Source: Candidatus Undinarchaeales archaeon
GTDB taxonomy: Archaea > SpSt-1190 > JASMDC01
NCBI GenBank assembly: GCA_030753015.1
Contig: JASMDC010000055.1
Span: 1-16,847, forward strand
DNA length: 16,847 bases
Direction: 5' to 3'
Part shown: positions 2,550 through 13,689 of the stretch, piece after piece
Layout: each line of letters opens with the position of its first letter
Numbering within the stretch: position 1 is the first letter of the stretch
Translations under genes and position numbers: made by a program
The notes under the pieces: generated by a model
What the model was told of the DNA's origin: nothing
What the model saw: the letters and a program-made list of their open reading frames with translations, nothing else
Database searches by the model: none

Positions 2550-2873
2550 ATGGTACAGAACGACGAAAAGACCGTGAAGAAACCGGTCACCGAGCAGAAG
2601 ATGGAAGACGCGCCCACCGCTCCCACGCCGACGGCGACGGATGGCGGCGTCACCCTGCGCGTTGGCGTAGGGCTCTTCCACAAGCCCCGTAACGTGAGCC
2701 TCTCCGGCTCCGAGACCGTGAACGACGTGCGCCATCTCTTAGGTGTGCCCGTCGAGTACGTGGCCGTGGTCCCCGGCAGGGGAGTCGCCGAGGGCGGCTG
2801 CGCTGTGTGCGAGGCAGTCGACGAGGGCGAGGAACTCCTCTTCGTGCCCCTGACCGCCGGCGGATCCCGGTAG
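2550..2873 (+). CDS. Ubiquitin-like (beta-grasp) modifier precursor ending ...LTAGG-SR, 107 aa
   Basis: SD GGTGA at 2540-2544. VTLRVGVG..RNVSLSGSETVNDVRHLLGVP...EELLFVPLTAGG aligns by eye with ubiquitin (TLEVEPSDTIENVK..GIP...TLHLVLRLRGG). Di-Gly at 2859-2864 is followed by Ser-Arg-stop. Sits next to E2 and JAMM genes, with E1 in the same operon. Confidence 0.82.
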   Translation: MVQNDEKTVKKPVTEQKMEDAPTAPTPTATDGGVTLRVGVGLFHKPRNVSLSGSETVNDVRHLLGVPVEYVAVVPGRGVAEGGCAVCEAVDEGEELLFVPLTAGGSR

Positions 2874-2882
2874 GCGGTTGCC

Positions 2883-3803
2883 GTGTCGTCCGTCGCCGAG
2901 GTGAACCTGCGCGAGCGCGTAGCGTCCGCGGTGGAGGCTGCGCTCTCGGCGTTCGCACGGTTGCACGACCGGCCGCTCACCCTGCTCCCCCTCTCGAACG
3001 GGGAGCTGGCGGCACTTGACGCGGAGATCGACGGCGACGCGCAGGTCGGTCCACGTCAGCAGGTGCGGACGCTGGTGCGCAAGGCGGCCGGGAGACCGAT
3101 CATGCTGGTGGCTGGCGCAGGTCCGGTCAAGACCTATACAATGGCCAGGATGGCCCGCGATGCCTACGACCTCTCGCTGTGCATGGCGACGTTCATCGTG
3201 CGCGAGCTCGAGCACCTTCCAGAGGTGCTGGAGGCCGCCCGTCTTGAGAAGCGGTTGGTCGCAGCCAACAACCTGGGCAGGCTGGGATTCCGTGTACAGG
3301 ACGAGCGCGGGTCTCGATTCTCGGGAAAGGTGGAGGTGCGCAAGGGGCCGATCAAGGGGAGCTATAGGATGGATGTGCTCCTCCCGCCCCGGTTCCCCGA
3401 CACCCAGCCGTTCTTCCGGCTGGTCGACGTGCCGCGCCACCCCAACGTCTACGACAGCGGCGACGTGTGCCTGGGCCACTTCGTGTGGAACCCGGCGCTG
3501 GACATCACCGTCCTGGTGGAGCAGGTGCGTCACGTGCTGGAGAACCCGAATTACGAGGACGGATTGCACCGGGAGGGCGACGAAGAACAGGAGGAGCTCT
3601 CGGAGAACAGCGTACGTCTGCTGTCCCTGGTCGCTGAGCTTGTCAGTGAGCGGAAGCCCAGTGTGACCTACGCCGAGATACGGCAGGTGGCCTCGGAGCG
3701 CGGAGGGATGAGCCACGACGAGATCGATGGCGCGATACAAGAGCTCATCACCAGGGGCGAGATCTTCGAGCCCCAAGCTGGAAGGTACCAGCCGCTCATC
3801 TGA
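2883..3803 (+). CDS. Ubiquitin-conjugating enzyme E2 (UBC fold) with N-terminal extension and C-terminal winged-helix domain, 306 aa
   Basis: YRMDVLLPPRFPDTQP...HPNVYDSGDVCLGHFVWNPALDITVLVEQVRHVLENPN matches eukaryotic UBC (FPTDYPFKPP..HPNINSNGSICLDIL..WSPALTI..LLCDPN). HPN at 3438-3446, Cys at 3468-3470. Tail EIDGAIQELITRGEIFEPQAGRYQ resembles the archaeal MCM C-terminal wH. Confidence 0.9.
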   Translation: MSSVAEVNLRERVASAVEAALSAFARLHDRPLTLLPLSNGELAALDAEIDGDAQVGPRQQVRTLVRKAAGRPIMLVAGAGPVKTYTMARMARDAYDLSLCMATFIVRELEHLPEVLEAARLEKRLVAANNLGRLGFRVQDERGSRFSGKVEVRKGPIKGSYRMDVLLPPRFPDTQPFFRLVDVPRHPNVYDSGDVCLGHFVWNPALDITVLVEQVRHVLENPNYEDGLHREGDEEQEELSENSVRLLSLVAELVSERKPSVTYAEIRQVASERGGMSHDEIDGAIQELITRGEIFEPQAGRYQPLI

Positions 3804-3819
3804 ACAGGTAGTGATCCAT

Positions 3820-4290
3820 ATGGGAGAGCTGAAAGAGGGAATTGGCGAGGATAAGGGAGTGGGGATCCCCCACGTCCTCATAGATAGGGACATCGAGCGC
3901 GATATGTATGCCGCTGCCATGGCGCAGTACATCATCAACGGCGGGGAGGCGTCGGGACTCTTGGTAGGCAGGGTTGAGGCGGACGTCGTTACCGTCACGT
4001 CAGCACCCCATATGCCCGGCGAGAGCGAGCACTCCTTCTGTCGCATCCCCCCCCTCACGGCCGCCGAGCTGGCGGCCTCGCTGCCCGACGACGTCGCCGT
4101 GGTCGGCTGGTGGCACTCCCACCCCAGGTTCGCGCGAACGCCGAGCGCCACGGACCTCGCCACCATCGACTCCATGGTGCGGTCGTCACCTCTCGTGGTG
4201 TCGGTAATCGTCGACCCACTGGTCTGCGCAATGGACGTCTACATCACCGACGACAGCGGGACATGGCACGTGGATGGAGGGTACGGGTGA
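3820..4290 (+). CDS. JAMM/MPN+ (JAB) metallo-isopeptidase, Rpn11-like, 156 aa
   Basis: EASGLLVG ... VVGWWHSHPRFARTPSATD ... VVSVIVDP is a complete E-xn-H-S-H-x7-S-x2-D JAMM motif. GGTAGTGA RBS before ATG 3820. Confidence 0.92.
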   Translation: MGELKEGIGEDKGVGIPHVLIDRDIERDMYAAAMAQYIINGGEASGLLVGRVEADVVTVTSAPHMPGESEHSFCRIPPLTAAELAASLPDDVAVVGWWHSHPRFARTPSATDLATIDSMVRSSPLVVSVIVDPLVCAMDVYITDDSGTWHVDGGYG

Positions 4291-6953
4291 TGCCGAGTCT
4301 CGCTAGGCTGGCGCTTGACCGGGAACGTTCGCGGGCGCGGTCCAATAACAGGGGCGGGACGGAGCCATCTCTTGGTAGTCTGCTCGCGTTAGTTAGCAAT
4401 GAAATGGAACAAATCCCGGAGATCGAGCTCGGGGGGGAGGAGGTTGCGGACACGTCGCGCGAGCTCGCAGAGGCGCTCGGCCGCAACGATTATCGAGAAG
4501 CTATCATATTCCTAGTGATCCTGGTAAGGATGACCCGATCGATCATCGAGAGAAGTGGAGCGCATGAGATGCAACCGATAAACGGCTCGGTGGTCCGCTC
4601 GCTCCTCCGGTCCACTGAAGAGCTCGAGTGGATCCACGGCGATGGTGACGATCTCCCAGGAAAGCTCGTGTTCCGCCTGGACGAGGGTCTAGTAACGGGA
4701 ACCGAGCGTGCATTGGAGAACGAGGACCCCCGCGTGGTGGAGTACTGGAGGGCCTCCGGCCGCTGGCTCGAAGAGAGCGCTAATCCCGACCACGGGGAGA
4801 GGCCGAGGTGGCCGGAGGGATCCGACCCGACCGTGCCGCGACCTGGGCTCCCGCTCTCCTTCCTGTGCACGGCCCACGCGTGGGCCTTGGCGGCCATCCT
4901 GCGCTCCTGCTCTACACTCCGACGGGGGCGGTACCTCGTCTACCTGCAACTGCTCCACCCTCTCGCTGTGTCGCTCGACCTGCTGCGCCAGCTCGATGAC
5001 GAGCACGACAGGTACCTGACAGTGAGGGATGGCGAGGATGAGGATGGCATCTTCTTCCACGAGGCGCTCGACGTGCTCGCCCGTGAACGGGCCTCTTTGG
5101 AGAGAGTTGTGGCAGACCACCTCTCCTCGCTCTACGGCCTCGAGAGGCTAGAGTTCATCCCGCCCCTCTGGCTTGAGGGGCAAGTGAACATCGAGAGGCC
5201 GCGCCCCGCTGGCAGGGAACGTAATGTCGGGCATCCGGTGACCGAATCGGCCAGCCGCATTACGGTCTTTCTGGCGAGCCGGGACCTTGCAGGCTCGGTG
5301 GAATCGCTTGCCCGGGCCTGCGCTGCTACGACGGACGCGCTCGACCCGGTCCACGGCGTCCCGTGGCACAGGAGGACCCACTTGGCGGACAGGTTGAGGT
5401 CGACCGCGTGCGACATCGCCTGGGGGATGAACCGCATCCAGAACAGCGGGGGAGTGGTCGCTGACATGGCGACGATAACCCGCTTCCTCAGGCACGTGGA
5501 GGGAAGGACGGACAACAGCTATGGATCGCCCATCGCGTGGACCCTCGACGCCTTCAGGATGCTGGCCGAAGAACACTTGCTGGCGATGGCCGACGCTCTC
5601 GATCCGCCTTCGGCCGGCGAGGTGGGAGTCCGACCCGACCATACCCAGTTCGGCGGCATCCCCTACCAGTTCTCGTCGGGTGTAGCACTCTCAAGAGCGC
5701 GCGAGCACCTCCGCCGGTATGACGGTCCACTTTCGTCGGAAGGTCTCGGCGGGGACTGGGGCGAGGAAGAGGGTGCTCGGCTTCTAGCCGCTCTCCGGGA
5801 GCTGGTCCGGTCGCGTGATGGGCTGGCCGCCGCCATCGACATGATGATCGCGCGGGAGAACGAGGACATGACACATCTCACCGACGGCCACGTGCTCTGG
5901 GGGGACGGGCTGGCGGCCGTGCCGCGCCTGGAGCCGGTGTCCGAGGAAACACACCGTGATGAGGGGGGGACGCTCGAACGGACCGTCCGGAACGCCGTCG
6001 CGCTCGAAGACGGCACGGGCATGCTCCACTATGTGTACCCACGCTTCATCGACCGGGCGCTGGACATCATCGAGGAGCGCGGGAACGATATCCGCCCCCT
6101 CGGGACGAGCGGCTCTGGTGAGCTGGTGATCGAGATCAACGGCCGGGTGGTGACCGCTCACCGCAACCTCGACTACTACACATGCTCGTGCGAGGACTCG
6201 CACTACCGTTCAGCAGAGGACCGACACTTGTGCAAGCACGTGGCGGTCGCGGCCATCCTGTTCGGTGACTTCGAGCTGCGAGAGGATCTGCACCTGCAGC
6301 GGGCAGAGGCCCTCTCCACACAGTTCTCTGACATCAGGGAGCGGGTGCTCGCCGAGCGCGGTGGCCGTGCCGATCATCTCAGGCAGACCGTACTGCGACA
6401 GCTGGTGGGGACGACGGACAGGAACGGAATTGAACTCCGTCAACGTCGGGCTGAGCTGCATGATCGCATCCGGAACCTTGAGGTACAGCGTATGGAGACG
6501 CCCCTCCACAACCAAGAACTACGCCGGGAGCTCCGGCAGGAGCTGGAGCGATACAACCTCGAGCTCGAGTCCATCAACAGACCGCTGGAAGGGGCGGGGC
6601 CGGCCAGGCGCAGGCCCGGCGAGGTGCCAAGGAGGGGGGGACCGGACGTTCTGGAGGGGCAGAGGGAGATTCTCAGGACCAGGATCATGGACATCCAAGC
6701 GAATATCGAAGAGATCAACGCGCGGATAAGGGGAGAGGAACCCGAGGTTCTCGAAGGTAACGAGCGCCGGGAACTCATTCGCCAGCAGGCGTCCCTTGAG
6801 CAAGAGCTAGCACGGTCAAGGCACCGGTTGGAAGACGTCCAGCACCAGCTCCAGCGGTCCGAGGCCCACGGTCGCTCCGGACCGGTCACGCGAGCAGTAG
6901 TGCGGGCGCCACCAGGGATGTGGGAGTGCGCGCCACCGGGGGAGGGGAGCTGA
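4290..6953 (+). CDS. Large protein: uncharacterised helical domain, SWIM zinc finger, coiled coil and WECxPP tail, 887 aa
   Basis: TGATG overlap with the JAMM stop. SWIM YTCSCEDSHYRSAEDRHLCKH (6183-6239). Heptad-rich C-terminus. Only 2 Lys. Confidence 0.8.
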   Translation: MPSLARLALDRERSRARSNNRGGTEPSLGSLLALVSNEMEQIPEIELGGEEVADTSRELAEALGRNDYREAIIFLVILVRMTRSIIERSGAHEMQPINGSVVRSLLRSTEELEWIHGDGDDLPGKLVFRLDEGLVTGTERALENEDPRVVEYWRASGRWLEESANPDHGERPRWPEGSDPTVPRPGLPLSFLCTAHAWALAAILRSCSTLRRGRYLVYLQLLHPLAVSLDLLRQLDDEHDRYLTVRDGEDEDGIFFHEALDVLARERASLERVVADHLSSLYGLERLEFIPPLWLEGQVNIERPRPAGRERNVGHPVTESASRITVFLASRDLAGSVESLARACAATTDALDPVHGVPWHRRTHLADRLRSTACDIAWGMNRIQNSGGVVADMATITRFLRHVEGRTDNSYGSPIAWTLDAFRMLAEEHLLAMADALDPPSAGEVGVRPDHTQFGGIPYQFSSGVALSRAREHLRRYDGPLSSEGLGGDWGEEEGARLLAALRELVRSRDGLAAAIDMMIARENEDMTHLTDGHVLWGDGLAAVPRLEPVSEETHRDEGGTLERTVRNAVALEDGTGMLHYVYPRFIDRALDIIEERGNDIRPLGTSGSGELVIEINGRVVTAHRNLDYYTCSCEDSHYRSAEDRHLCKHVAVAAILFGDFELREDLHLQRAEALSTQFSDIRERVLAERGGRADHLRQTVLRQLVGTTDRNGIELRQRRAELHDRIRNLEVQRMETPLHNQELRRELRQELERYNLELESINRPLEGAGPARRRPGEVPRRGGPDVLEGQREILRTRIMDIQANIEEINARIRGEEPEVLEGNERRELIRQQASLEQELARSRHRLEDVQHQLQRSEAHGRSGPVTRAVVRAPPGMWECAPPGEGS

Positions 6954-9613
6954 TGCCCGATATATTCGACCGAGCAGTCCAGGAGCTCGAGAGCACCAGG
7001 AATGATGGACATGACTCCAACGAGCGCGCGCTGCAGCTCGCCAACATCGTGCACCGGCACGCCGAGGCGGAGTTCGGTGTCGACGGGCTCGAGCGCTCTC
7101 TTGACCCGCTGGCGACGTGCCTGCACGGCCGCGCGCACGCGGGAGAAACGTACGCCTGTCTCGTGCTACTCGCCGCCGCGTGCGACATCGCTGCGGACGT
7201 TGTGAACAGTACACGAGATGGTGGAGGGAACGTCCGTCAGCAACACACCCGGCCTCTACTCCAGATCGCGGGCGATCTCCTCTTCAATGATGATAGCACC
7301 CTCATCAACCAGCGGGAGGTCGTGCCCGGCTCCTTGGGCGAGGTCGTCATGGTGCCTGCCCGTGCAGGGACGCTGACACGTCCGCACGATGAAGACCGAG
7401 AGGGCCGATCTCATGACGACCTGCTCGCCTGGTGCGCGGTCCACCTCTGGGCCATCGGGCGAATCCTCGACGAGTGCTCGGGCGACGGCTTGAGCGCTGC
7501 CGGTATCGCGCGATTTGCCACGGTCGTACGGGCGCTGCGCACATTGGACCACGCGCAGTTCATGCACGCCGAGATCGAGGAGTACCCATGGGAAAGGGAT
7601 GCCTATGTGGAAGCTGCGCTCGCAGCTCTATTCAACAAGCGCAGCCGCCTGACGGGTCGGCTCGCCCAGTCCCTGCGCGACCGGCTCGGGCTCGAGCCGC
7701 CGCTGTTCATACGGCCGGGCGCACAGTTCATTCCAGGGAGGTTGTCGGTGGAGGACTGGGACCGGACCACCGTTAGGGAGGCTCTGGAGGTGGCCCGCCA
7801 CCTGGATGCTGGTGAGCTCAACGACGCACTCCGGTCCCTGGCACGGGCCATCCACGCCGGACTTAACGCGGACGACATCGGTCAGGATGAGCGGAGCACG
7901 ACCGCCCGTCGACTGCGGGCGATCTCCTGCGGCATCGCTTGGGGGATGGCGGCCCCGGTGGCGTACGACGACATGAACCGCGCCATGGGTGAGCTGGTCA
8001 GCTTCACGCGGGAGTGCTTCCAGATCAACCTTCCTGAAACGCGCGAACCGGGCCTCCCGCGGGCCGTCCGGGCGCACGTCGAGGCGCATCTGGAGGCGCT
8101 GGCGGTCGCGATCGATCCACCTCACGCCATTACATCCCGGGACGCGCCGCGGGCGTCCATCTGGCGCGGGCAGTCCGATCTGTTCCGTGTACCGCGGGAC
8201 CTGAGCGCCGACCACATCATCTCAAGTGTCCACGACCGGCTCCGTGTGCACAATCCGAGTTCCGACAACGTCGACCGGGTGAGCGACGAGCGTCGGGACG
8301 CCGAGGAGGAGCTCGCGAGGGCCCGGGGTCAGCTGCTCTCCTTGCTGGAGGAGATGGAGGACCAGGCAGACATCATGCTCGAGGACGACGATGCCATCTG
8401 GCCATTGCGCGGGATCGTCATCCCCTTAATCCCGGGCGCCACCGGTGAACTGCAAGGGGAAGGGGTGCCGTTCTTCGAGATGGAGTACCGGCGAGACGGC
8501 ACTCCCCTGAACATAGACATAGATTCCGAAACCGGCCAGCTGATCCGCACCACGGGGACCGCTTCACGCGGGAACATAATCCCGGACATCGCCACCCGCT
8601 ACCTGGAGGCCGCCGAGGAGCACGGGAGGGCCAGGGACGAGGCCGCGCGGCATGGCCTGCGGCGGTCGCGGGAGGAGCGGTTCTCCCGACAGGAGGCGGT
8701 CCCCGGATGGGACCAGGGCAGGTTACGGCGGGCCGTGGTCGTGGTCGCCGGAGTGGGCGGCCTGGGCGCGGCGGTGGTGGACCAGCTGGCACGGATGGGC
8801 GTCGGGACGGTCCGCGTCGTCGACCACGACCGGGTGGAGGACTCCAACATCTCGCGCCAGTGCCTCTACATCGCCGACGACGTCGGGAGCCTCAAGGTGG
8901 ACGCTGCCGCGCGACGGGTGTCGGACCTCGACGGGCCCACCCGCGTGGTCCCGCGACCCGCGTACTTATGCGAACGCAACGCTCTCATGCTGGTGGCCGG
9001 CGCCGACGTGGTGTTCGACTGCCTGGACAGCGAGAAGAGCAAGCACCTGCTCAACCACGCGTGCGCGCGGGCGGGGGTACCGCTGGTCCACGGGGGATGC
9101 ACGGGATTCATCGGGCAGGCGATGGCCGTGGTGCCGGGACGGACGGCGTGCCTGGCGTGCCGGGAGCTTACCTTCTCGGTGGCGGACACGGCCAGCTGCA
9201 CCCGCGACGAGACCCTGCCCATCGTGGCCCCCACGGCCCAGCTGGTGGCGTCCCTGCAGGTGGATCTGGCCCTGCACGTGCTCATGGGGACGGGCGACGT
9301 GCCGTCGGGGCTGCTCCTGTACGATGGCCGCGGGCCGGGCGTGCGGTCCGTGCCGGTGGAGCGCAGGGACGACTGCCCTGTGTGCGGAGGTAACGGGACG
9401 ACGGACGACGATGTGCGGACGGCGCTCTCACTCCAGTCTCAAGATTCCCTGCTCCAGATCGCCGGGGCCGTGGGGATGGAGCACGCCGACGGGATGGACA
9501 CCAGCAACCTCGTCGAAGCGCTCGTCGACGTGTTCTCGGCCCTCCCTGACGGCAGGCACCGTGCGCTACGACTGGCGTCGGGCGTGCAGTTCATCGAGGA
9601 GGCGATGTCGTGA
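6953..9613 (+). CDS. Ubl-activating enzyme E1 (ThiF/MoeB/UBA domain) fused to a ~575-aa N-terminal helical domain, 886 aa
   Basis: TGATG coupling. RFSRQ (8678), GVGGLG (8750), VVDHDRVEDSNISRQ, DVGSLK, DCLDS, Zn pairs CLAC and CPVC, and a crossover-loop Cys in ASCTRD (9197). Confidence 0.9.
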   Translation: MPDIFDRAVQELESTRNDGHDSNERALQLANIVHRHAEAEFGVDGLERSLDPLATCLHGRAHAGETYACLVLLAAACDIAADVVNSTRDGGGNVRQQHTRPLLQIAGDLLFNDDSTLINQREVVPGSLGEVVMVPARAGTLTRPHDEDREGRSHDDLLAWCAVHLWAIGRILDECSGDGLSAAGIARFATVVRALRTLDHAQFMHAEIEEYPWERDAYVEAALAALFNKRSRLTGRLAQSLRDRLGLEPPLFIRPGAQFIPGRLSVEDWDRTTVREALEVARHLDAGELNDALRSLARAIHAGLNADDIGQDERSTTARRLRAISCGIAWGMAAPVAYDDMNRAMGELVSFTRECFQINLPETREPGLPRAVRAHVEAHLEALAVAIDPPHAITSRDAPRASIWRGQSDLFRVPRDLSADHIISSVHDRLRVHNPSSDNVDRVSDERRDAEEELARARGQLLSLLEEMEDQADIMLEDDDAIWPLRGIVIPLIPGATGELQGEGVPFFEMEYRRDGTPLNIDIDSETGQLIRTTGTASRGNIIPDIATRYLEAAEEHGRARDEAARHGLRRSREERFSRQEAVPGWDQGRLRRAVVVVAGVGGLGAAVVDQLARMGVGTVRVVDHDRVEDSNISRQCLYIADDVGSLKVDAAARRVSDLDGPTRVVPRPAYLCERNALMLVAGADVVFDCLDSEKSKHLLNHACARAGVPLVHGGCTGFIGQAMAVVPGRTACLACRELTFSVADTASCTRDETLPIVAPTAQLVASLQVDLALHVLMGTGDVPSGLLLYDGRGPGVRSVPVERRDDCPVCGGNGTTDDDVRTALSLQSQDSLLQIAGAVGMEHADGMDTSNLVEALVDVFSALPDGRHRALRLASGVQFIEEAMS

Positions 9614-10479
9614 GCACCGGATTCCCTGGAGCAGCGCCCCGTGTGTACGGGCGACGAATGGGTCGGGGGCCGACGGTCGAGGTCTACGAGGAGGGATTCG
9701 TCGTCGAGCGCTGCCCGACTTGTGGCAGGCACCTCAAGGATATGACCGACTGGCCGAATGTAAGGGTTACCGGGATCGAGGACGCGGTGGACGACGTGCG
9801 CCGCGAGTCCCTTTCGCGGCTGGTGCGGCGCGGGCCCTTCCTGCTCCAGTGGGGGACCGTGCCGGGATGCGCGAGCGGAGCGATGCAGCGGTGCCTGGTC
9901 GACGAGCTGGGCCTGAACTGGGCGGCCGGGGCCGAGGTGCACCCGGTCGGCGACAGGTCGGTCCTCGTCATTAGAGGTCGGCGGTGGTGCATGGTCACCC
10001 TCGATCAGGACGAGCTCGTCGCGCACCTCGAGGTGGATGATGGGAGGAGGCTCGAGCTGGGCGTCGCTCGACTCGGCGACCGTGTCGACCTCCATATCCC
10101 TCTCGACGACGACGATGTCGATGATAGGACCGCTCCTTACCTCTGGGCCCGGAACCCCGCTGCGGTGCACTCCGCGAGGGCTGCTGTAGCCCATCTCAAG
10201 GGATTCGTCGGCACGGACGCGGATCCGGACCGGATAGCTGAGCTGTGGCGCGCCGAGGGATTCAGCGGACCATGGGCCCGTTACCACGAGTTCAGGGGTG
10301 TCCGGATCGTGCAGGTCGGCGGTTACGCGCTCTACCTCGACGACAACGTCCTTACGCTTGTCGACGCGGACAGGATCGGCGGTGGGCTCGACGGTCCTCC
10401 GCCGGTGACGTTCCGTCTGGCGCGGGTGCTGTACGAGGGGATGCTGCACGAAGAGCGGAGCGGTGGCGGCAGTGGCTGA
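9610..10479 (+). CDS. Hypothetical protein with CxxC knuckle and central beta-rich domain, 289 aa
   Basis: GTGA overlap with the E1 stop and GGAGG RBS. ERCPTCGRH. Coding-like codon bias. Only 2 Lys. Confidence 0.7.
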   Translation: MSTGFPGAAPRVYGRRMGRGPTVEVYEEGFVVERCPTCGRHLKDMTDWPNVRVTGIEDAVDDVRRESLSRLVRRGPFLLQWGTVPGCASGAMQRCLVDELGLNWAAGAEVHPVGDRSVLVIRGRRWCMVTLDQDELVAHLEVDDGRRLELGVARLGDRVDLHIPLDDDDVDDRTAPYLWARNPAAVHSARAAVAHLKGFVGTDADPDRIAELWRAEGFSGPWARYHEFRGVRIVQVGGYALYLDDNVLTLVDADRIGGGLDGPPPVTFRLARVLYEGMLHEERSGGGSG

Positions 10480-12286
10480 GGACGGAACGATCCTTCTCGC
10501 GTGCGAACGCGCGCACCACCAGGCCGTCGCCGGGAAGAGGGATGACATGATGGAGTGCCTCCGGTTCGCCGGTGATAGTATCTCTAACATCATGCGCACC
10601 CGGTCTTTCTCGCGACGACCGCGTGCCCGTTCCATGGATTCATTGCAGTTGGACGAGCGAATTGCGTCCTTGTCAGCCCACCTCATCACTGGTGGCACAG
10701 GTCCCGCCCCGGGCCCACGAGTGATCGCAGTACCCCTTGACACGGGGCGGACGTGCCCTGACCTCAGGGACGGACCATTAGACACACAACTACATCTGTG
10801 CTGCCCCCCGCGCACGTTGTGCGCGGCGGAATTATGGACGCTCTCCCGCGTCTTTCACTTGGCCATCTGCGGCGCAGGTGACGTGCATGAGCGCATAGTC
10901 ATGTCCGACCTCGTACGCATAGGGAGAGCGCTCACAAGCCTGACCGATCCCCTGTTCCCTTTTGGGGGGGTCGCCTCCGGGTTGGGAGACGACCTCTTTA
11001 TGTACCCTCTTGATATGCTCTCCTTTAACCGGACTTCATCGGATGACGGTGCGGATGCAAGGCACGCAGTCGTTCGGGAAAGGCTCGACGATGTCGCGCA
11101 GGTCGAGCGCCACCATATCGTCGACGTTGCCCTGGACGCGGCCCTCGGCCTCCAGTGCGGCAGGACCGAGGACATGGCGCGCGGCCTCACCTCCCTAGAG
11201 GAAATGTGCCGGATAACCGCGTCGGTCCTGGAGGGCGGGACGGAAGAACCCGGTGAGAGGGACGTCACGCTCCTCCGGTTCATATCAGCCACCCTTGCAC
11301 TGGAGGACGTCATCGCGGCGACTGAGACGGATATCTTCTTCGATACCATGGAGCTCGGAAGGTCCGTGCTCACGTCAAGTTATATCGGGGCGTACTACGG
11401 CGGGATGCCGGACCCCGTACAGTTCAGGCTGGCGTGCGAGCACCATATCGAGGCATGCGCGAGCGCGCTCGACACCAGAGCGGACCTATCGGGGGCAGTC
11501 TGGCAGGGCGTGGGTCAGTGGTATCAGCTCGGTCCCGACGAGGGGGTGGTCCTTCCGCTCCTGAACGCCCGGGAGCGACTCATGCGGTACAGGTCAGACT
11601 TCAGACCCCCGGAGGACGCTGTGGATCACGAGGTCACGTCAGCGTCCAGAGCCCTGTCGCGGCAGCGCGACCAGCTCCTTGACGTGCTGGACGCACGGAT
11701 CGCTGCTCTGACGGAGGGCGCTATGAGAACTGCAGGGCGTCGGTACGTATCGCTCTCGTATCCCGAAGGAATAGTCGCCGCCGCAGAGGGCGCAACGGTC
11801 GGGCCCGACGTACCGGGCGACCAGGTCTGCGCGACCGTTCGGAGCGGGGAACACCCTGAATGGGATGTGACCCGGTGGACGCTGGTACAGGCCCAGCACT
11901 TCATCAAGAAGCACGGGTATCTCATCGATCGCCTGGGTACCAGCCAAACGGGCGAGCCGGTGCTTGTCGTGGACTCGCACGTAGTGGCGCTGGGTCAGGA
12001 CAACCTGGATCGAGACCGCTACCGCCCCCTCTACGAGTGCTACTCATGCCGGGAGTTTCGTGAGCAGAACGGGACCCGACCCCGGCTCTGCAAGCACCTA
12101 ACGGCGGCGCTCATCATCATGGGCCGACTGGGTGAGCGCGAGGGTGTCGACCTCAGCCTGCTCGACCGGGCCCTCGCATTGATAAGGGAGGAGGTCGGGA
12201 TGACGGGCATCCGCGGGCGGTACCGCAGCAGCGCGTGCGCGGGCGACGGGGTATGGGAGTGTCGGGCGCCAAGGGAGGGGGTATGA
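10463..12286 (+). CDS. Paralog of 4290-6953: helical domain, SWIM-like zinc finger and WEC tail, ~607 aa (start may be GTG 10472)
   Basis: YECYSCREFREQNGTRPRLCKH (12038-12097). LGTSQTGEPV motif. Shared helical-domain motifs. Ends GVWECRAPREGV. Confidence 0.78.
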   Translation: MAAVAEDGTILLACERAHHQAVAGKRDDMMECLRFAGDSISNIMRTRSFSRRPRARSMDSLQLDERIASLSAHLITGGTGPAPGPRVIAVPLDTGRTCPDLRDGPLDTQLHLCCPPRTLCAAELWTLSRVFHLAICGAGDVHERIVMSDLVRIGRALTSLTDPLFPFGGVASGLGDDLFMYPLDMLSFNRTSSDDGADARHAVVRERLDDVAQVERHHIVDVALDAALGLQCGRTEDMARGLTSLEEMCRITASVLEGGTEEPGERDVTLLRFISATLALEDVIAATETDIFFDTMELGRSVLTSSYIGAYYGGMPDPVQFRLACEHHIEACASALDTRADLSGAVWQGVGQWYQLGPDEGVVLPLLNARERLMRYRSDFRPPEDAVDHEVTSASRALSRQRDQLLDVLDARIAALTEGAMRTAGRRYVSLSYPEGIVAAAEGATVGPDVPGDQVCATVRSGEHPEWDVTRWTLVQAQHFIKKHGYLIDRLGTSQTGEPVLVVDSHVVALGQDNLDRDRYRPLYECYSCREFREQNGTRPRLCKHLTAALIIMGRLGEREGVDLSLLDRALALIREEVGMTGIRGRYRSSACAGDGVWECRAPREGV

Positions 12287-13032
12287 TGCCTGGCGGGAGC
12301 GGGGAGGGCGCCAGCTCCTGGAGCGACCGGCAGAGGGAGCTCGCCGAGTACGCCGGTATAATCCTGATGGAGGAGGGTGAGACCTTCGAGCAGGCGGAGA
12401 GGCGCCAGGAGAGGGAGATGCGTGAGCGCGGGGCCAGGCGCACAGGAGTTACCGGCGAGCAGACCGGCCAGGCTCCTGGGCAGCGACCGCGCGAGGTGTC
12501 CGGGGCGTCTTCGGACAGCGCGTCCCGGGGCGGGGCGCCGGCGGCGGACCTCGAGGGCGCGAGGACCGGCGGGCGGGACCGACCGGCGTGGACCACGTGG
12601 CGGGATCCGGGAGGCGTCGAGTGGCGGATCACGCTGGACAAGCTCAACAGGGCCGCCAACATCCTCCTGACCGAGTTCGACCTCAGGCGCATGGGCACCA
12701 GCGCGGTCGGAGAGATCGTGCTCGAGATCGCGTCCCGCGTCGTCACGGTGAACCTGGAGCGCCGCTACTGCGTGTGCTCATGCGAGGACTACCGCTCAAG
12801 CAGCGAGGGGGACCACCACCTGTGCGAGCACGTAGTGGCCGCGCTCTTCATCATGGGGGAGCTGGGGGAGCGCGAGGGCATCGATCTCGGCCTCTTCTCC
12901 CCGCTCGTCCCCGCGATCAGGAACTGGCTCCTTTTCGATGGGAACCCTGATACCCTTGCGGAGGACGGGAAAGGGCGGAGCGAGGGTTGGGAATGTCGGC
13001 CACCGGGGGATGGGAGGGAGTGCGACGGGTGA
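12283..13032 (+). CDS. SWIM zinc-finger protein with low-complexity N-terminus and WEC tail, 249 aa
   Basis: ATGA overlap and GGAGGGGG RBS. MGTSAVGEIV...YCVCSCEDYRSSSEGDHHLCEHVVAAL. Ends EGWECRPPGDGRECDG. Confidence 0.78.
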   Translation: MMPGGSGEGASSWSDRQRELAEYAGIILMEEGETFEQAERRQEREMRERGARRTGVTGEQTGQAPGQRPREVSGASSDSASRGGAPAADLEGARTGGRDRPAWTTWRDPGGVEWRITLDKLNRAANILLTEFDLRRMGTSAVGEIVLEIASRVVTVNLERRYCVCSCEDYRSSSEGDHHLCEHVVAALFIMGELGEREGIDLGLFSPLVPAIRNWLLFDGNPDTLAEDGKGRSEGWECRPPGDGRECDG

Positions 13033-13130
13033 GGGTGACAGCGGGGCCGACAAGCTGGTGGACCCATGGCGGTCGCTGGCATGCTCGTGCTGCGGCACGG
13101 GTGATGATGAAGGAGGTGTTCCGATCATGA
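13029..13130 (+). CDS. Possible 33-aa coupling peptide
   Basis: GTGA overlap with the upstream stop and ATGA overlap with the downstream start. MRVTAGPTSWWTHGGRWHARAAARVMMKEVFRS. Confidence 0.35.
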   Translation: MRVTAGPTSWWTHGGRWHARAAARVMMKEVFRS

Positions 13131-13491: not shown

Positions 13492-13689
13492 GTGCTGAAC
13501 GCCTTCGTCAGGCTGGTGGTGGATATACTCCCGCTACCGCTCGGCCTGACGGCGGGGGTGCCGGGCATCTCGTCCGGCACGAGCCTCGAGGGTAAAGCGC
13601 ACCCGGCGGGCGGAGGGCTCGCGCGGGGCGGGGAGAGAGGCGGTGAGCCGTCCATGGCGGAAAGACGGAAAAAGGTGACACCCATATGA
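13492..13689 (+). CDS. Possible small hypothetical protein, 65 aa (alternative: 13476-13595, 39 aa)
   Basis: GGAGGAG RBS before GTG, and its stop overlaps the nuclease ATG. The reading frame is ambiguous and the sequence is low-complexity. Confidence 0.3.
   Translation: MLNAFVRLVVDILPLPLGLTAGVPGISSGTSLEGKAHPAGGGLARGGERGGEPSMAERRKKVTPI

Follow-up and report, generated by a model that had tools for sequence, protein, structure and literature searches.

How does a prokaryotic ubiquitin-like protein (Ubl) system pick its targets without a RING or HECT ligase? Prokaryotic cassettes of E1, E2, protease and Ubl are now read both as forerunners of the eukaryotic ubiquitin machinery and as immune systems, and a locus of a Candidatus Undinarchaeales archaeon bears on this question. 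The DNA examined here (hereafter the window) spans bases 1‒16,847 of contig C68, which is 20,370 bases long, and all window coordinates refer to it. The contig belongs to a genome assembly (G000) of 3.85 Mb in 117 contigs, with a completeness of 98.9% and a contamination of 5%. At 2550‒13032 on the + strand, eight tightly coupled genes lie in the order Ubl, E2, JAMM metalloprotease, SWIM-A, E1, CxxC protein, SWIM-B and SWIM-C. Judging from the sequences, we consider it somewhat probable that they encode a self-contained, lysine-directed Ubl conjugation cassette with lineage-specific scaffold or targeting subunits, set in a variable, defence-island-like stretch. The published work on related systems is cited from excerpts of the respective papers.

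Organization of the operon

Three junctions are TGATG stop/start overlaps (JAMM/SWIM-A, where the ATG of SWIM-A overlaps the JAMM stop, SWIM-A/E1, and SWIM-B/SWIM-C, where the SWIM-C start overlaps the SWIM-B stop). A GTGA overlap joins the stop of E1 and the start of the CxxC gene, and the remaining junctions are one 9-nucleotide (nt) gap, one 16-nt gap and one 17-nt overlap. These overlaps and short gaps indicate one operon, and our analysis confirms that the eight genes form one coherent Ubl-E2-JAMM-E1 operon with accessory proteins. An earlier note on this DNA had reported a Ubl ending in GG-SR, an HPN-type E2, a JAMM protein, an E1, three proteins with SWIM zinc fingers and one with a CxxC motif, and we find all the elements named there at the same positions on the + strand.

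The guanine-plus-cytosine (GC) content at the third codon position (GC3) is 0.75‒0.87 and exceeds that at the first position (GC1) in each of the eight called frames. The long antisense open reading frames (ORFs) do not have this pattern, and the codon-position GC therefore favors the called frames. The operon has a GC content of 64‒70%, compared with 57‒60% in the flanks. The whole contig lies 3.5 points above the genome in GC, and its tetranucleotide profile matches that of the genome (r = 0.964; median, 0.981). The GC-rich DNA, which yields many long ORFs, the 5% contamination and the raised GC of the contig would all suit an artefact, that is, spurious ORFs or a chimeric or mis-binned contig. 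However, codon-position GC fits the called frames, orthologs exist for Ubl, E2, E1, SWIM-A and SWIM-B, the tetranucleotide correlation is as given above, and the flanking genes are of archaeal type. In addition, contigs from four other sequencing runs, belonging to four studies, cover all of the window (30 of 30 bins), and one of them bridges 10534‒16847 without a difference. We regard an artefact as largely refuted and extremely improbable.

An AT-rich stretch, gataatgcttttattgc, is located at 2459‒2476 within GC-rich DNA, about 75‒90 nt upstream of the Ubl start, and could be a TATA-like archaeal promoter element of the operon. A small same-strand ORF lies on each side of the operon, one at 1951‒2337 (+) encoding 128 residues with a hydrophobic segment and one at 13127‒13351 (+) encoding 74 residues. 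Their GC3 is coding-like (0.82 and 0.84), their lysine content is normal, and neither matches a family.

The modifier and the core enzymes

The Ubl precursor (107 residues, 2550‒2873 (+)) ends in LTAGG-SR, with Gly104-Gly105 followed by a Ser-Arg propeptide. A lysine-containing N-terminal extension of ~33 residues precedes a core that is assigned by profile to the SAMP2/ThiS-type β-grasp. The lead came from the ESM Atlas (SAMP2/ThiS, score 0.85), and the Ubl profile aligns end to end, GG on GG, with a profile of 19 archaeal SAMP2 sequences (hhalign 94%, E 1.5e-7). In Pfam, the Ubl has no match, including none to PF00240. The modifier thus appears by its profile to be of the SAMP2/ThiS type rather than of the ubiquitin family. 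An alignment of 13 sequences shows a ~70-residue core with almost no variation and an invariant GG, after which come SR, SA or LRMGG[TI]. This invariant GG with variable following residues indicates a cleaved propeptide. Arg77 is the last basic residue ahead of the GG, and digestion of a conjugate with trypsin would therefore yield a remnant of 28 residues (Gly78-Gly105) instead of diGly.

The E2 (306 residues, 2883‒3803 (+)) matches PF00179 UQ_con at E 5.8e-12. Its HPN motif occupies residues 186‒188 (nt 3438‒3446), the putative catalytic residue is Cys196 (nt 3468‒3470), and His186, Pro187, Asn188 and Cys196 are invariant in nine sequences. Among structures in the PDB, Ubc13 is the best match (1.2e-7), followed by UBE2A and UBE2T, with the HPN, the Cys and a following W-x-P aligned. 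Across the same nine sequences, an N-terminal extension of ~140 residues is highly conserved, and the C-terminus, an acidic linker with a possible winged helix (a weak match to MCM_WH_arc, E 0.021), is variable and in one case duplicated. Elsewhere in the genome (G000:C26:22097-24208 (-), equivalent to L047:8097-10208), we observed a 703-residue protein that contains the E2 fold three times in tandem (UQ_con 6.8e-23, in three stretches, with further matches to UEV and RWD) and is conserved in the congener as a 754-residue frame (G001:C6). Its gene adjoins those of unknown proteins of 959 and 691 residues, near an archaeal LonB, with no E1 or Ubl beside it.

The JAMM/MPN+ metalloprotease gene (3820‒4290 (+)) matches Prok-JAB (1.3e-10) and JAB (1e-6) in Pfam. 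The motif H99-x-H101-x7-S109-x2-D112 (nt 4114‒4155) is complete, with the Glu located in GGEASG (nt 3940‒3957). The PDB matches are Rpn11 (3.6e-5) and the Caldiarchaeum Rpn11-like protein 6fjv (4.1e-5), and in NCBIfam the haloarchaeal desampylase model is matched below its cut-off (5.4e-6). From this similarity, we predict that the protein is the Ubl-processing and deconjugating enzyme.

The E1 (886 residues, 6953‒9613 (+)) consists of an all-α N-domain (about residues 1‒560) and a single ThiF adenylation domain in the C-terminal 330 residues, which matches the Pfam ThiF model in one stretch at E 1.3e-52; the last ~70 residues have no assignment. The motif GVGGLG is at nt 8750‒8767, and a Zn-type pair is formed by CLAC (nt 9149‒9160) and CPVC (nt 9374‒9385). 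Cys749 of the crossover loop, in TASCTRD (nt 9188‒9208), aligns with the ThiF cysteine, and the crossover-loop cysteine (C760 in the numbering of the homolog P0002) is invariant in six sequences. The PDB matches of the domain include E. coli ThiF (1.2e-28), MoeB (3.1e-26) and BubCD (4.7e-11), and in NCBIfam the E1 matches ThiF (3.8e-43) and UbaA (5e-39), with scores for ThiF, MoeB and UbaA far below the equivalog cut-offs. With the UbaA model it scores 134 bits, where an equivalog needs 450, and the E1 would accordingly be a relative and not an ortholog. By these matches, the E1 domain is closest to the ThiF/MoeB/UbaA type.

A SAMP-type modifier, a ThiF-type E1, a eukaryote-type E2 and an Rpn11-like protease together make the cassette a hybrid. 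The operon had been called eukaryote-like in the earlier note, which is borne out by the E2 (Ubc13, 1.2e-7) and the JAMM protein (Rpn11, 3.6e-5) but not by the SAMP2/ThiS-type modifier or the ThiF/MoeB/UbaA-type E1 domain. These two components also raise the possibility that the operon is a ThiS/MoaD-ThiF-type pathway that carries sulfur or activates metabolites, with a CysO/Mec-like JAMM maturase and no protein conjugation, in which a SAMP2/ThiS-like modifier and an E1 domain nearest to ThiF and MoeB would be expected. However, such a pathway does not account for a UBC E2 with an invariant HPN and Cys inside the operon, and no biosynthetic enzyme was found in the operon with Pfam and NCBIfam. 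The E1 also remains far below the equivalog cut-offs, and searches of the congener did not find the system. Furthermore, the genome already has two other ThiS/SAMP-family genes and a second, stand-alone E1, so the operon set is additional to a housekeeping set. We consider the sulfur-carrier explanation very unlikely and retain conjugation as the preferred reading.

Accessory proteins and their common C-terminal tail

SWIM-A (887 residues, 4290‒6953 (+)), SWIM-B (607 residues, 10463‒12286 (+)) and SWIM-C (249 residues, 12283‒13032 (+)) have in common a finger module of ~85 residues with the pattern GTS..GE.V...VV...Y..(C)xC..x13..CxH...G and 36‒46% identity. The finger lies at nt 6183‒6239 in SWIM-A (CSC..CKH), at nt 12769‒12831 in SWIM-C (CVCSC..CEH), and at nt 12038‒12097 in SWIM-B, which has the variant CYSC..CKH (CxxC...CxH); all five sequences compared keep the second Cys and the CxH. 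The finger profile aligns with 17 bona fide archaeal SWIM domains (hhalign 84%, E 7.7e-6), and a search of the PDB with the module profile returned nothing. The earlier note had named three SWIM zinc-finger proteins. CxC/CxxC...CxH fingers are indeed present in all three, and the profile comparison agrees with the name, but the Pfam scores stay below the cut-off. No ORF of the window or of the rest of the contig has a Pfam match to a RING or another treble-clef finger, and the only Cys/His modules found are the SWIM-like ones.

The three proteins are paralogs (BLASTP E values of 8e-8 for A-B, 2e-16 for A-C and 3e-18 for B-C), and the helical N-domain of the E1 is related to those of two of them. 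The E1 aligns with SWIM-A at E 3e-13 (25% identity over 442 columns) and, more weakly, with SWIM-B at E 2e-4, where the helical N-domain is diverged. SWIM-C has the SWIM module alone, with a low-complexity N-terminal half and no helical domain. Thus, the fusion of the E1 to a domain common to the SWIM proteins, claimed previously, holds for SWIM-A and SWIM-B but not for SWIM-C. The alignment of E1 and SWIM-A reaches the GT[SA]..G strand before the finger, beyond which the E1 has no zinc ligands and runs into the ThiF domain. Of the helical domain and the finger, the E1 has only the former and SWIM-C only the latter, and by Rosetta-stone logic these two proteins may pair in trans. A complex prediction of E2 with SWIM-C residues 115‒249 gave no answer (score 0.00) and weighs neither way. 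The AlphaFold model of the E1 N-domain consists entirely of helices (predicted local distance difference test (pLDDT) score 65.5, predicted template modeling (pTM) score 0.73), and a Foldseek search of the PDB with it gave 0 matches at E ≤ 1e-3, the best being the NOT1 SH domain (E 0.014, TM score 0.21‒0.25). In SWIM-A, a charged helical region of ~200 residues lies between the finger and the C-terminal tail.

The CxxC protein (289 residues, 9610‒10479 (+)) contains a single CPTC at residues 35‒38 (nt 9712‒9723), and its GC3 is 0.80 against a GC1 of 0.74. It belongs to no recognizable family, with no match in Pfam, NCBIfam or the PDB and nothing at 0.80 or below in the ESM Atlas. A match to PHROG 10268, of unknown function, covers 34 residues at 4e-4, and the PHROG search was otherwise uninformative for the operon.

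The C-terminus of each SWIM protein, and of the orthologs known from other samples, reads G-x-W-E-C-x-[PA]-P plus 2‒9 variable residues. The motif reads WECAPP in SWIM-A (nt 6921‒6938), WECRAP in SWIM-B (nt 12254‒12271) and WECRPP in SWIM-C (nt 12988‒13005), and only 3 of the 33,493 six-frame ORFs of the genome, namely the three SWIM genes, end in it. The tail is kept in the orthologs P0024, whose full-length cluster mate P0028 has an identical tail, and P0025, an ortholog of SWIM-A; the 603-residue P0028 supports both the start and the tail of SWIM-B. We also considered whether the tail is a mere by-product of the downstream ribosome-binding site. This idea was rejected because SWIM-C, with no gene start behind it, retains the tail, as do P0024 and P0028, in which the residues after it differ.

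The accessory proteins seem, by their sequences, to belong to the system, being paralogous to the E1 and to each other with no detectable relatives outside. Their being private to the system, the domains that they share with the E1 and with each other, the common tail and the low lysine content all point to a specificity or scaffold module. The SWIM proteins may act as E3 or adaptor, as the earlier note had suggested; the domain shared with the E1, the tail and the scarcity of lysine are indirect hints of this.

Lysine content of the operon proteins

The E1, the three SWIM proteins and the CxxC protein together contain 14 Lys in 2,918 residues (E1, 4 of 886; SWIM-A, 2 of 887; SWIM-B, 4 of 607; SWIM-C, 2 of 249; CxxC protein, 2 of 289). 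The modifier has five, four of them in its N-terminal extension, and the E2 has seven. The genome median, taken over 2,065 heuristically chosen genes, is 4.1% Lys, with a first percentile of 0.4%, and the flanking genes of the same contig have 4.9‒8.3%. The genes of the five lysine-poor proteins form the longest run of genes with less than 1% Lys in the genome. When ranked among genes of matched GC (rank 1 being the poorest end), SWIM-A is 1st of 591 and SWIM-B 26th of 710. The low content is found as well in E1 orthologs down to 43% identity (0.34‒0.79%). On contig C69 (19.4 kb, 65.5% GC), three adjacent large proteins of 331, 737 and 813 residues encoded at 13643‒19336 also have 0.30‒0.41% Lys.

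Lysine deserts have been reported for components of the ubiquitin system (PMC10665810, PMC10169902), and the E1 and E2 of Caldiarchaeum auto-ubiquitylate in vitro (PMC5654768). The lysine desert of the operon reads as protecting the machine from its own product, which fits this auto-ubiquitylation.

The lysine content and the tail also bear on another explanation, in which the SWIM proteins are cargo or effectors that E1 and E2 modify or activate, perhaps via the C-terminal tails, as in the type II cyclic oligonucleotide-based antiphage signaling system (CBASS). The motif conserved at the C-terminus of all three paralogs would fit this role, as would the precedent of CBASS, where a protein of the operon itself becomes conjugated (PMC10557695), and the best PADLOC matches of E1 and JAB are CBASS models. 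However, a separate GG-ended modifier is encoded, the residues after WEC-x-PP are not conserved and include no fixed terminal glycine, and the SWIM proteins, almost without Lys, are unlikely lysine substrates. Pfam and PADLOC detect neither a cyclase nor any other effector domain in these proteins. We regard a cargo role as distinctly unlikely and continue to favor non-substrate subunits.

Genomic neighborhood and distribution

Upstream of the operon and divergent from it, the gene at 415‒1176 (-) encodes a putative Csa3-like regulator with a CARF domain and a winged helix (Pfam HFX_2341_N 1.6e-9 and DUF6293_C 3.6e-7; PADLOC CARF3 6.5e-22; NCBIfam Csa3 9e-9, below cut-off; Lys 8.3%). A Cas4-like PD-(D/E)XK nuclease with a C-terminal Cys cluster is encoded 650 nt downstream of the operon at 13686‒14597 (+) (PDDEXK_1 1.9e-19; PADLOC Cas4-like 1e-9; PHROG exonuclease 5.2e-12; Lys 4.9%), and its membership in the system is unproven. 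Beyond the window, at C68:17330-18828 (L010:1431-2929), lies an effector-like gene with CARF_m1 and PIN domains that appears split into adjacent ORFs of 160 and 339 residues (PADLOC 1e-28 and 2.7e-38). The contig ends in a fragment of an SMC/RecF-like ATPase gene. Within the window, a 142-residue ORF at 80‒508 (-) without a Pfam match has a C-x5-R-S motif, which we take to recall low-molecular-weight phosphatases or ArsC.

For the operon itself, PADLOC, NCBIfam and PHROGs gave only generic JAB and ThiF matches. In the PADLOC check called for in the earlier note, the best models for E1 and JAB were those of CBASS E1-E2 and JAB, and the E2 matched only at 0.024‒0.04. The possible antiviral role put forward there fits the CARF/Cas4-like neighborhood, as guilt by association. 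This neighborhood, the patchy distribution described below and the analogy with Bil and CBASS suggest a defence function, directed at viruses or mobile elements, as the likeliest biology, which is the weakest link of our reading.

Relatives of the operon proteins are few, with about ten close ones among billions of proteins, and none of the matches carries a name in any source database. The E1 N-domain has six matches among 5.8e9 proteins, all of them E1 fusions, the E2 has nine matches, each with at least 77% identity, and the Ubl matches three clusters. A phmmer search of 1.84e9 representatives with SWIM-C found three matches, namely itself and the SWIM-A-like and SWIM-B-like clusters. Going by matching recorded sizes, homologs of Ubl, E2 and E1 share contigs of 61,673 and 86,219 bases, and homologs of Ubl and E2 share contigs of 6,967 and 3,264 bases, which suggests that the Ubl/E2/E1 linkage is conserved in relatives.

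Among 61 related genomes, the E1 N-domain was found only in that of the window and not in the congener or the 59 others. The sole congener (99% complete) has only an ABC-transporter motif in common with the window DNA. UQ_con occurs in 2 of the 17 genomes of the phylum, both of this genus, and in 9 of 151 archaeal genomes (4 of 109 genera). Two of the other E2 loci were read, those of G028 (described below) and G124, and both are compact; G124 has an E1 of 286 and an E2 of 199 residues. A search for related loci in contigs of GTDB genomes yielded only an unrelated ThiF match in a bacterial metagenome-assembled genome, and searches of metagenome contigs and viral contigs, as well as a tblastn search of plasmids, yielded none.

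Eight seawater or marine metagenome runs from six studies, possibly including the source itself, contain the 31-mers of the operon at 0.63‒0.97. Runs of other studies yield identical assemblies of the locus with its flanks, and one public run carries diverged variants of the locus. There is no RNA run among the listed public runs with the operon. The locus is a real, stably carried, variable island of a marine archaeon.

These records must be weighed against a further explanation, namely that the operon is a housekeeping or regulatory Ubl system, for proteasome targeting or a stress response, with CARF and Cas4 neighbors by coincidence. The near-identity of the operon in seawater metagenomes of several studies and years, the almost invariant Ubl core and the absence of a Cas10 match in the genome are all compatible with such a function. 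On the other hand, searches of the sole congener (99% complete) and of the 15 further genomes of the phylum did not find the system, the operon has a higher GC and a different composition from its flanks, and the neighbors match defence-associated models. A housekeeping role seems unlikely to us, and a conjugation cassette in a defence-island-like stretch remains the preferred reading.

Comparison with known systems

The locus resembles archaeal sampylation (SAMP1-3/UbaA/HvJAMM1) in its SAMP2-like GG modifier, its ThiF/UbaA-like E1 domain and its desampylase-related JAMM protein. Sampylation is not known to need an E2 or E3. In contrast, the locus encodes a UBC E2, located between Ubl and JAMM, and four accessory proteins. 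In type II CBASS, Cap2 conjugates the CD-NTase via its C-terminus, and Cap3 reverses this conjugation. The locus shares the E1/E2/protease logic, and the PADLOC matches mentioned above point the same way; unlike CBASS, its E1 and E2 are separate genes and not a fusion, and no CD-NTase or other cyclase in the window was matched by Pfam or PADLOC. The Bub system operates through oxyester intermediates, with an E1 that has no catalytic cysteine and with a serine protease (PMC11601596), whereas the locus encodes an E1 and an E2 with conserved cysteines and a JAMM protease.

The operon of Caldiarchaeum subterraneum and Asgard archaea encodes ubiquitin, an E1-like and an E2-like protein, a small RING finger protein and an Rpn11-like JAMM protein, and the propeptide after the GG is cut off by the Rpn11 enzyme in Caldiarchaeum (PMC5654768). 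The locus has the same kind of UBC E2 with an HPN and a Cys, a single-ThiF-domain E1, an Rpn11-related JAMM protein inside the operon and a precursor with a GG and a propeptide. It differs in having no RING protein, in its SAMP2/ThiS-type modifier without a PF00240 match, in its 886-residue E1, which has a helical N-domain of 560 residues and in which no UBL domain was detected at the C-terminus, in its 306-residue E2 with additional N- and C-terminal regions, and in the four extra proteins interleaved with the enzymes. An archaeal genome with the Caldiarchaeum layout, G028, illustrates the difference. It encodes a 341-residue E1 with a C-terminal ubiquitin-family domain, a 134-residue E2, an 81-residue Ubl ending in GG and four more residues, and an 81-residue Cys/His-rich protein. 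Compared with these proteins, the E1 domain of the operon is 30% identical (2e-35) and its E2 is 24% identical (6e-9).

The bacterial Bil system shields its host from phage by modifying a virion protein. In Bil, the JAB protein removes the residues after the conserved glycine of the Ubl, BilD is a multidomain E1 (IAD, AAD and CYS), and BilB is a diverged E2 of the CEHH type (PMC10557695). The locus and BilABCD are alike in their core of Ubl, E2, JAB and E1, in the non-conserved residues past the glycine, in the defence-island setting and in having no known E3. They are unlike in that Bil is bacterial, in that the E1 of the locus combines one adenylation domain with an unrelated helical domain, and in that its E2 is of the HPN type and matched by UQ_con; SWIM partners are not reported for Bil in the excerpts. 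A functional precedent for a SWIM finger in target choice is ZSWIM8, a SWIM finger protein that serves as a substrate receptor of a cullin-RING ligase (PMC11348293). This resemblance would be one of function only: homology is detected no further than the short finger, and the locus has neither a cullin nor a RING or a BC-box.

The cassette would work most like the Caldiarchaeum and Bil systems. It departs from a defining feature of each of the Caldiarchaeum/Asgard, Bil, CBASS, Bub and sampylation systems. The suggestion of the earlier note that the architecture is undescribed is upheld by our full-text literature searches, which found no paper joining SWIM proteins with E1/E2/JAB systems; the operon supplements of PMC5654768 (Cluster III, Table 2) and of PMC10557695 lay outside these searches.

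Discussion

How, then, might the cassette work? Homology and the experiments on the Caldiarchaeum (PMC5654768) and Bil (PMC10557695) systems allow the following steps to be inferred. The JAMM protein would trim the Ser-Arg propeptide off the SAMP2-type modifier to expose a Gly-Gly end. The ThiF-type domain of the E1 would then adenylate the terminal glycine and form a thioester on the crossover-loop cysteine, from which the modifier would be handed to Cys196 of the E2. The E2 would move the modifier onto target lysines, and the JAMM protein could reverse this step. SWIM-A, SWIM-B, SWIM-C and the CxxC protein would not be substrates but subunits that hold the enzymes together and select the targets in place of a RING E3. 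The common G-x-W-E-C-x-P-P tail may dock the SWIM proteins to one shared partner, and the near-absence of Lys would shield the accessory proteins from self-modification.

Several points weigh against this reading. The mechanism as a whole is drawn from the sequences of a very small and closely related family, in which E2 relatives of at least 77% identity and a near-invariant Ubl core mean that conservation says little about deep constraint. The β-grasp assignment of the modifier rests on profile-profile similarity because its AlphaFold model, made from four sequences, was too poor for a fold search (pLDDT 44.6). For the SWIM assignment, against the gathering cut-off of 19.6 bits, Pfam SWIM (PF04434) gives SWIM-C 17.1 bits (E 0.004), SWIM-A 14.3 bits (E 0.03) and SWIM-B no match; a whole-genome scan with the SWIM model gave 18.8 and 18.2 bits, still below the cut-off, and the hhalign match spans only 26 columns. 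In two of the three tails, the codons after the motif double as the Shine-Dalgarno sequence and start of the next gene. The lysine depletion is partly compositional, with Lys content and GC correlated at r = -0.47. In the GC-matched ranking, the E1 is 12th of 130 and the CxxC protein 18th of 155, and three runs of three genes with less than 1% Lys exist elsewhere in the genome. Finally, the defence role is guilt by association, and the genome has no match to Cas10 (TIGR02577, TIGR02578), which leaves a cyclic-oligoadenylate link for the CARF genes unsupported.

A bolder version of the mechanism envisages a RING-independent "holo-ligase" that is CARF-regulated and antiviral. In this version, the E1 would be a member of the SWIM-scaffold family, its helical domain and those of SWIM-A and SWIM-B would come together in a single particle or recognize separate targets, SWIM-C would complete the E1, and the tail Cys would serve as a mobile relay or docking site for the E2~Ubl. 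Such a ligase, if real, would be a new class of E3 mechanism. We consider this version speculative and decidedly improbable as a whole.

By bringing together a SAMP-type modifier, a ThiF-type E1, a eukaryote-type E2 and an Rpn11-like JAMM protein in an archaeon outside the Caldiarchaeum type, the locus amounts to a natural experiment. If the partners are indeed the specificity module of the cassette, they would link activation with target choice in a new manner. The low-Lys make-up of exactly these proteins would then extend the idea of the lysine desert to archaeal Ubl systems.

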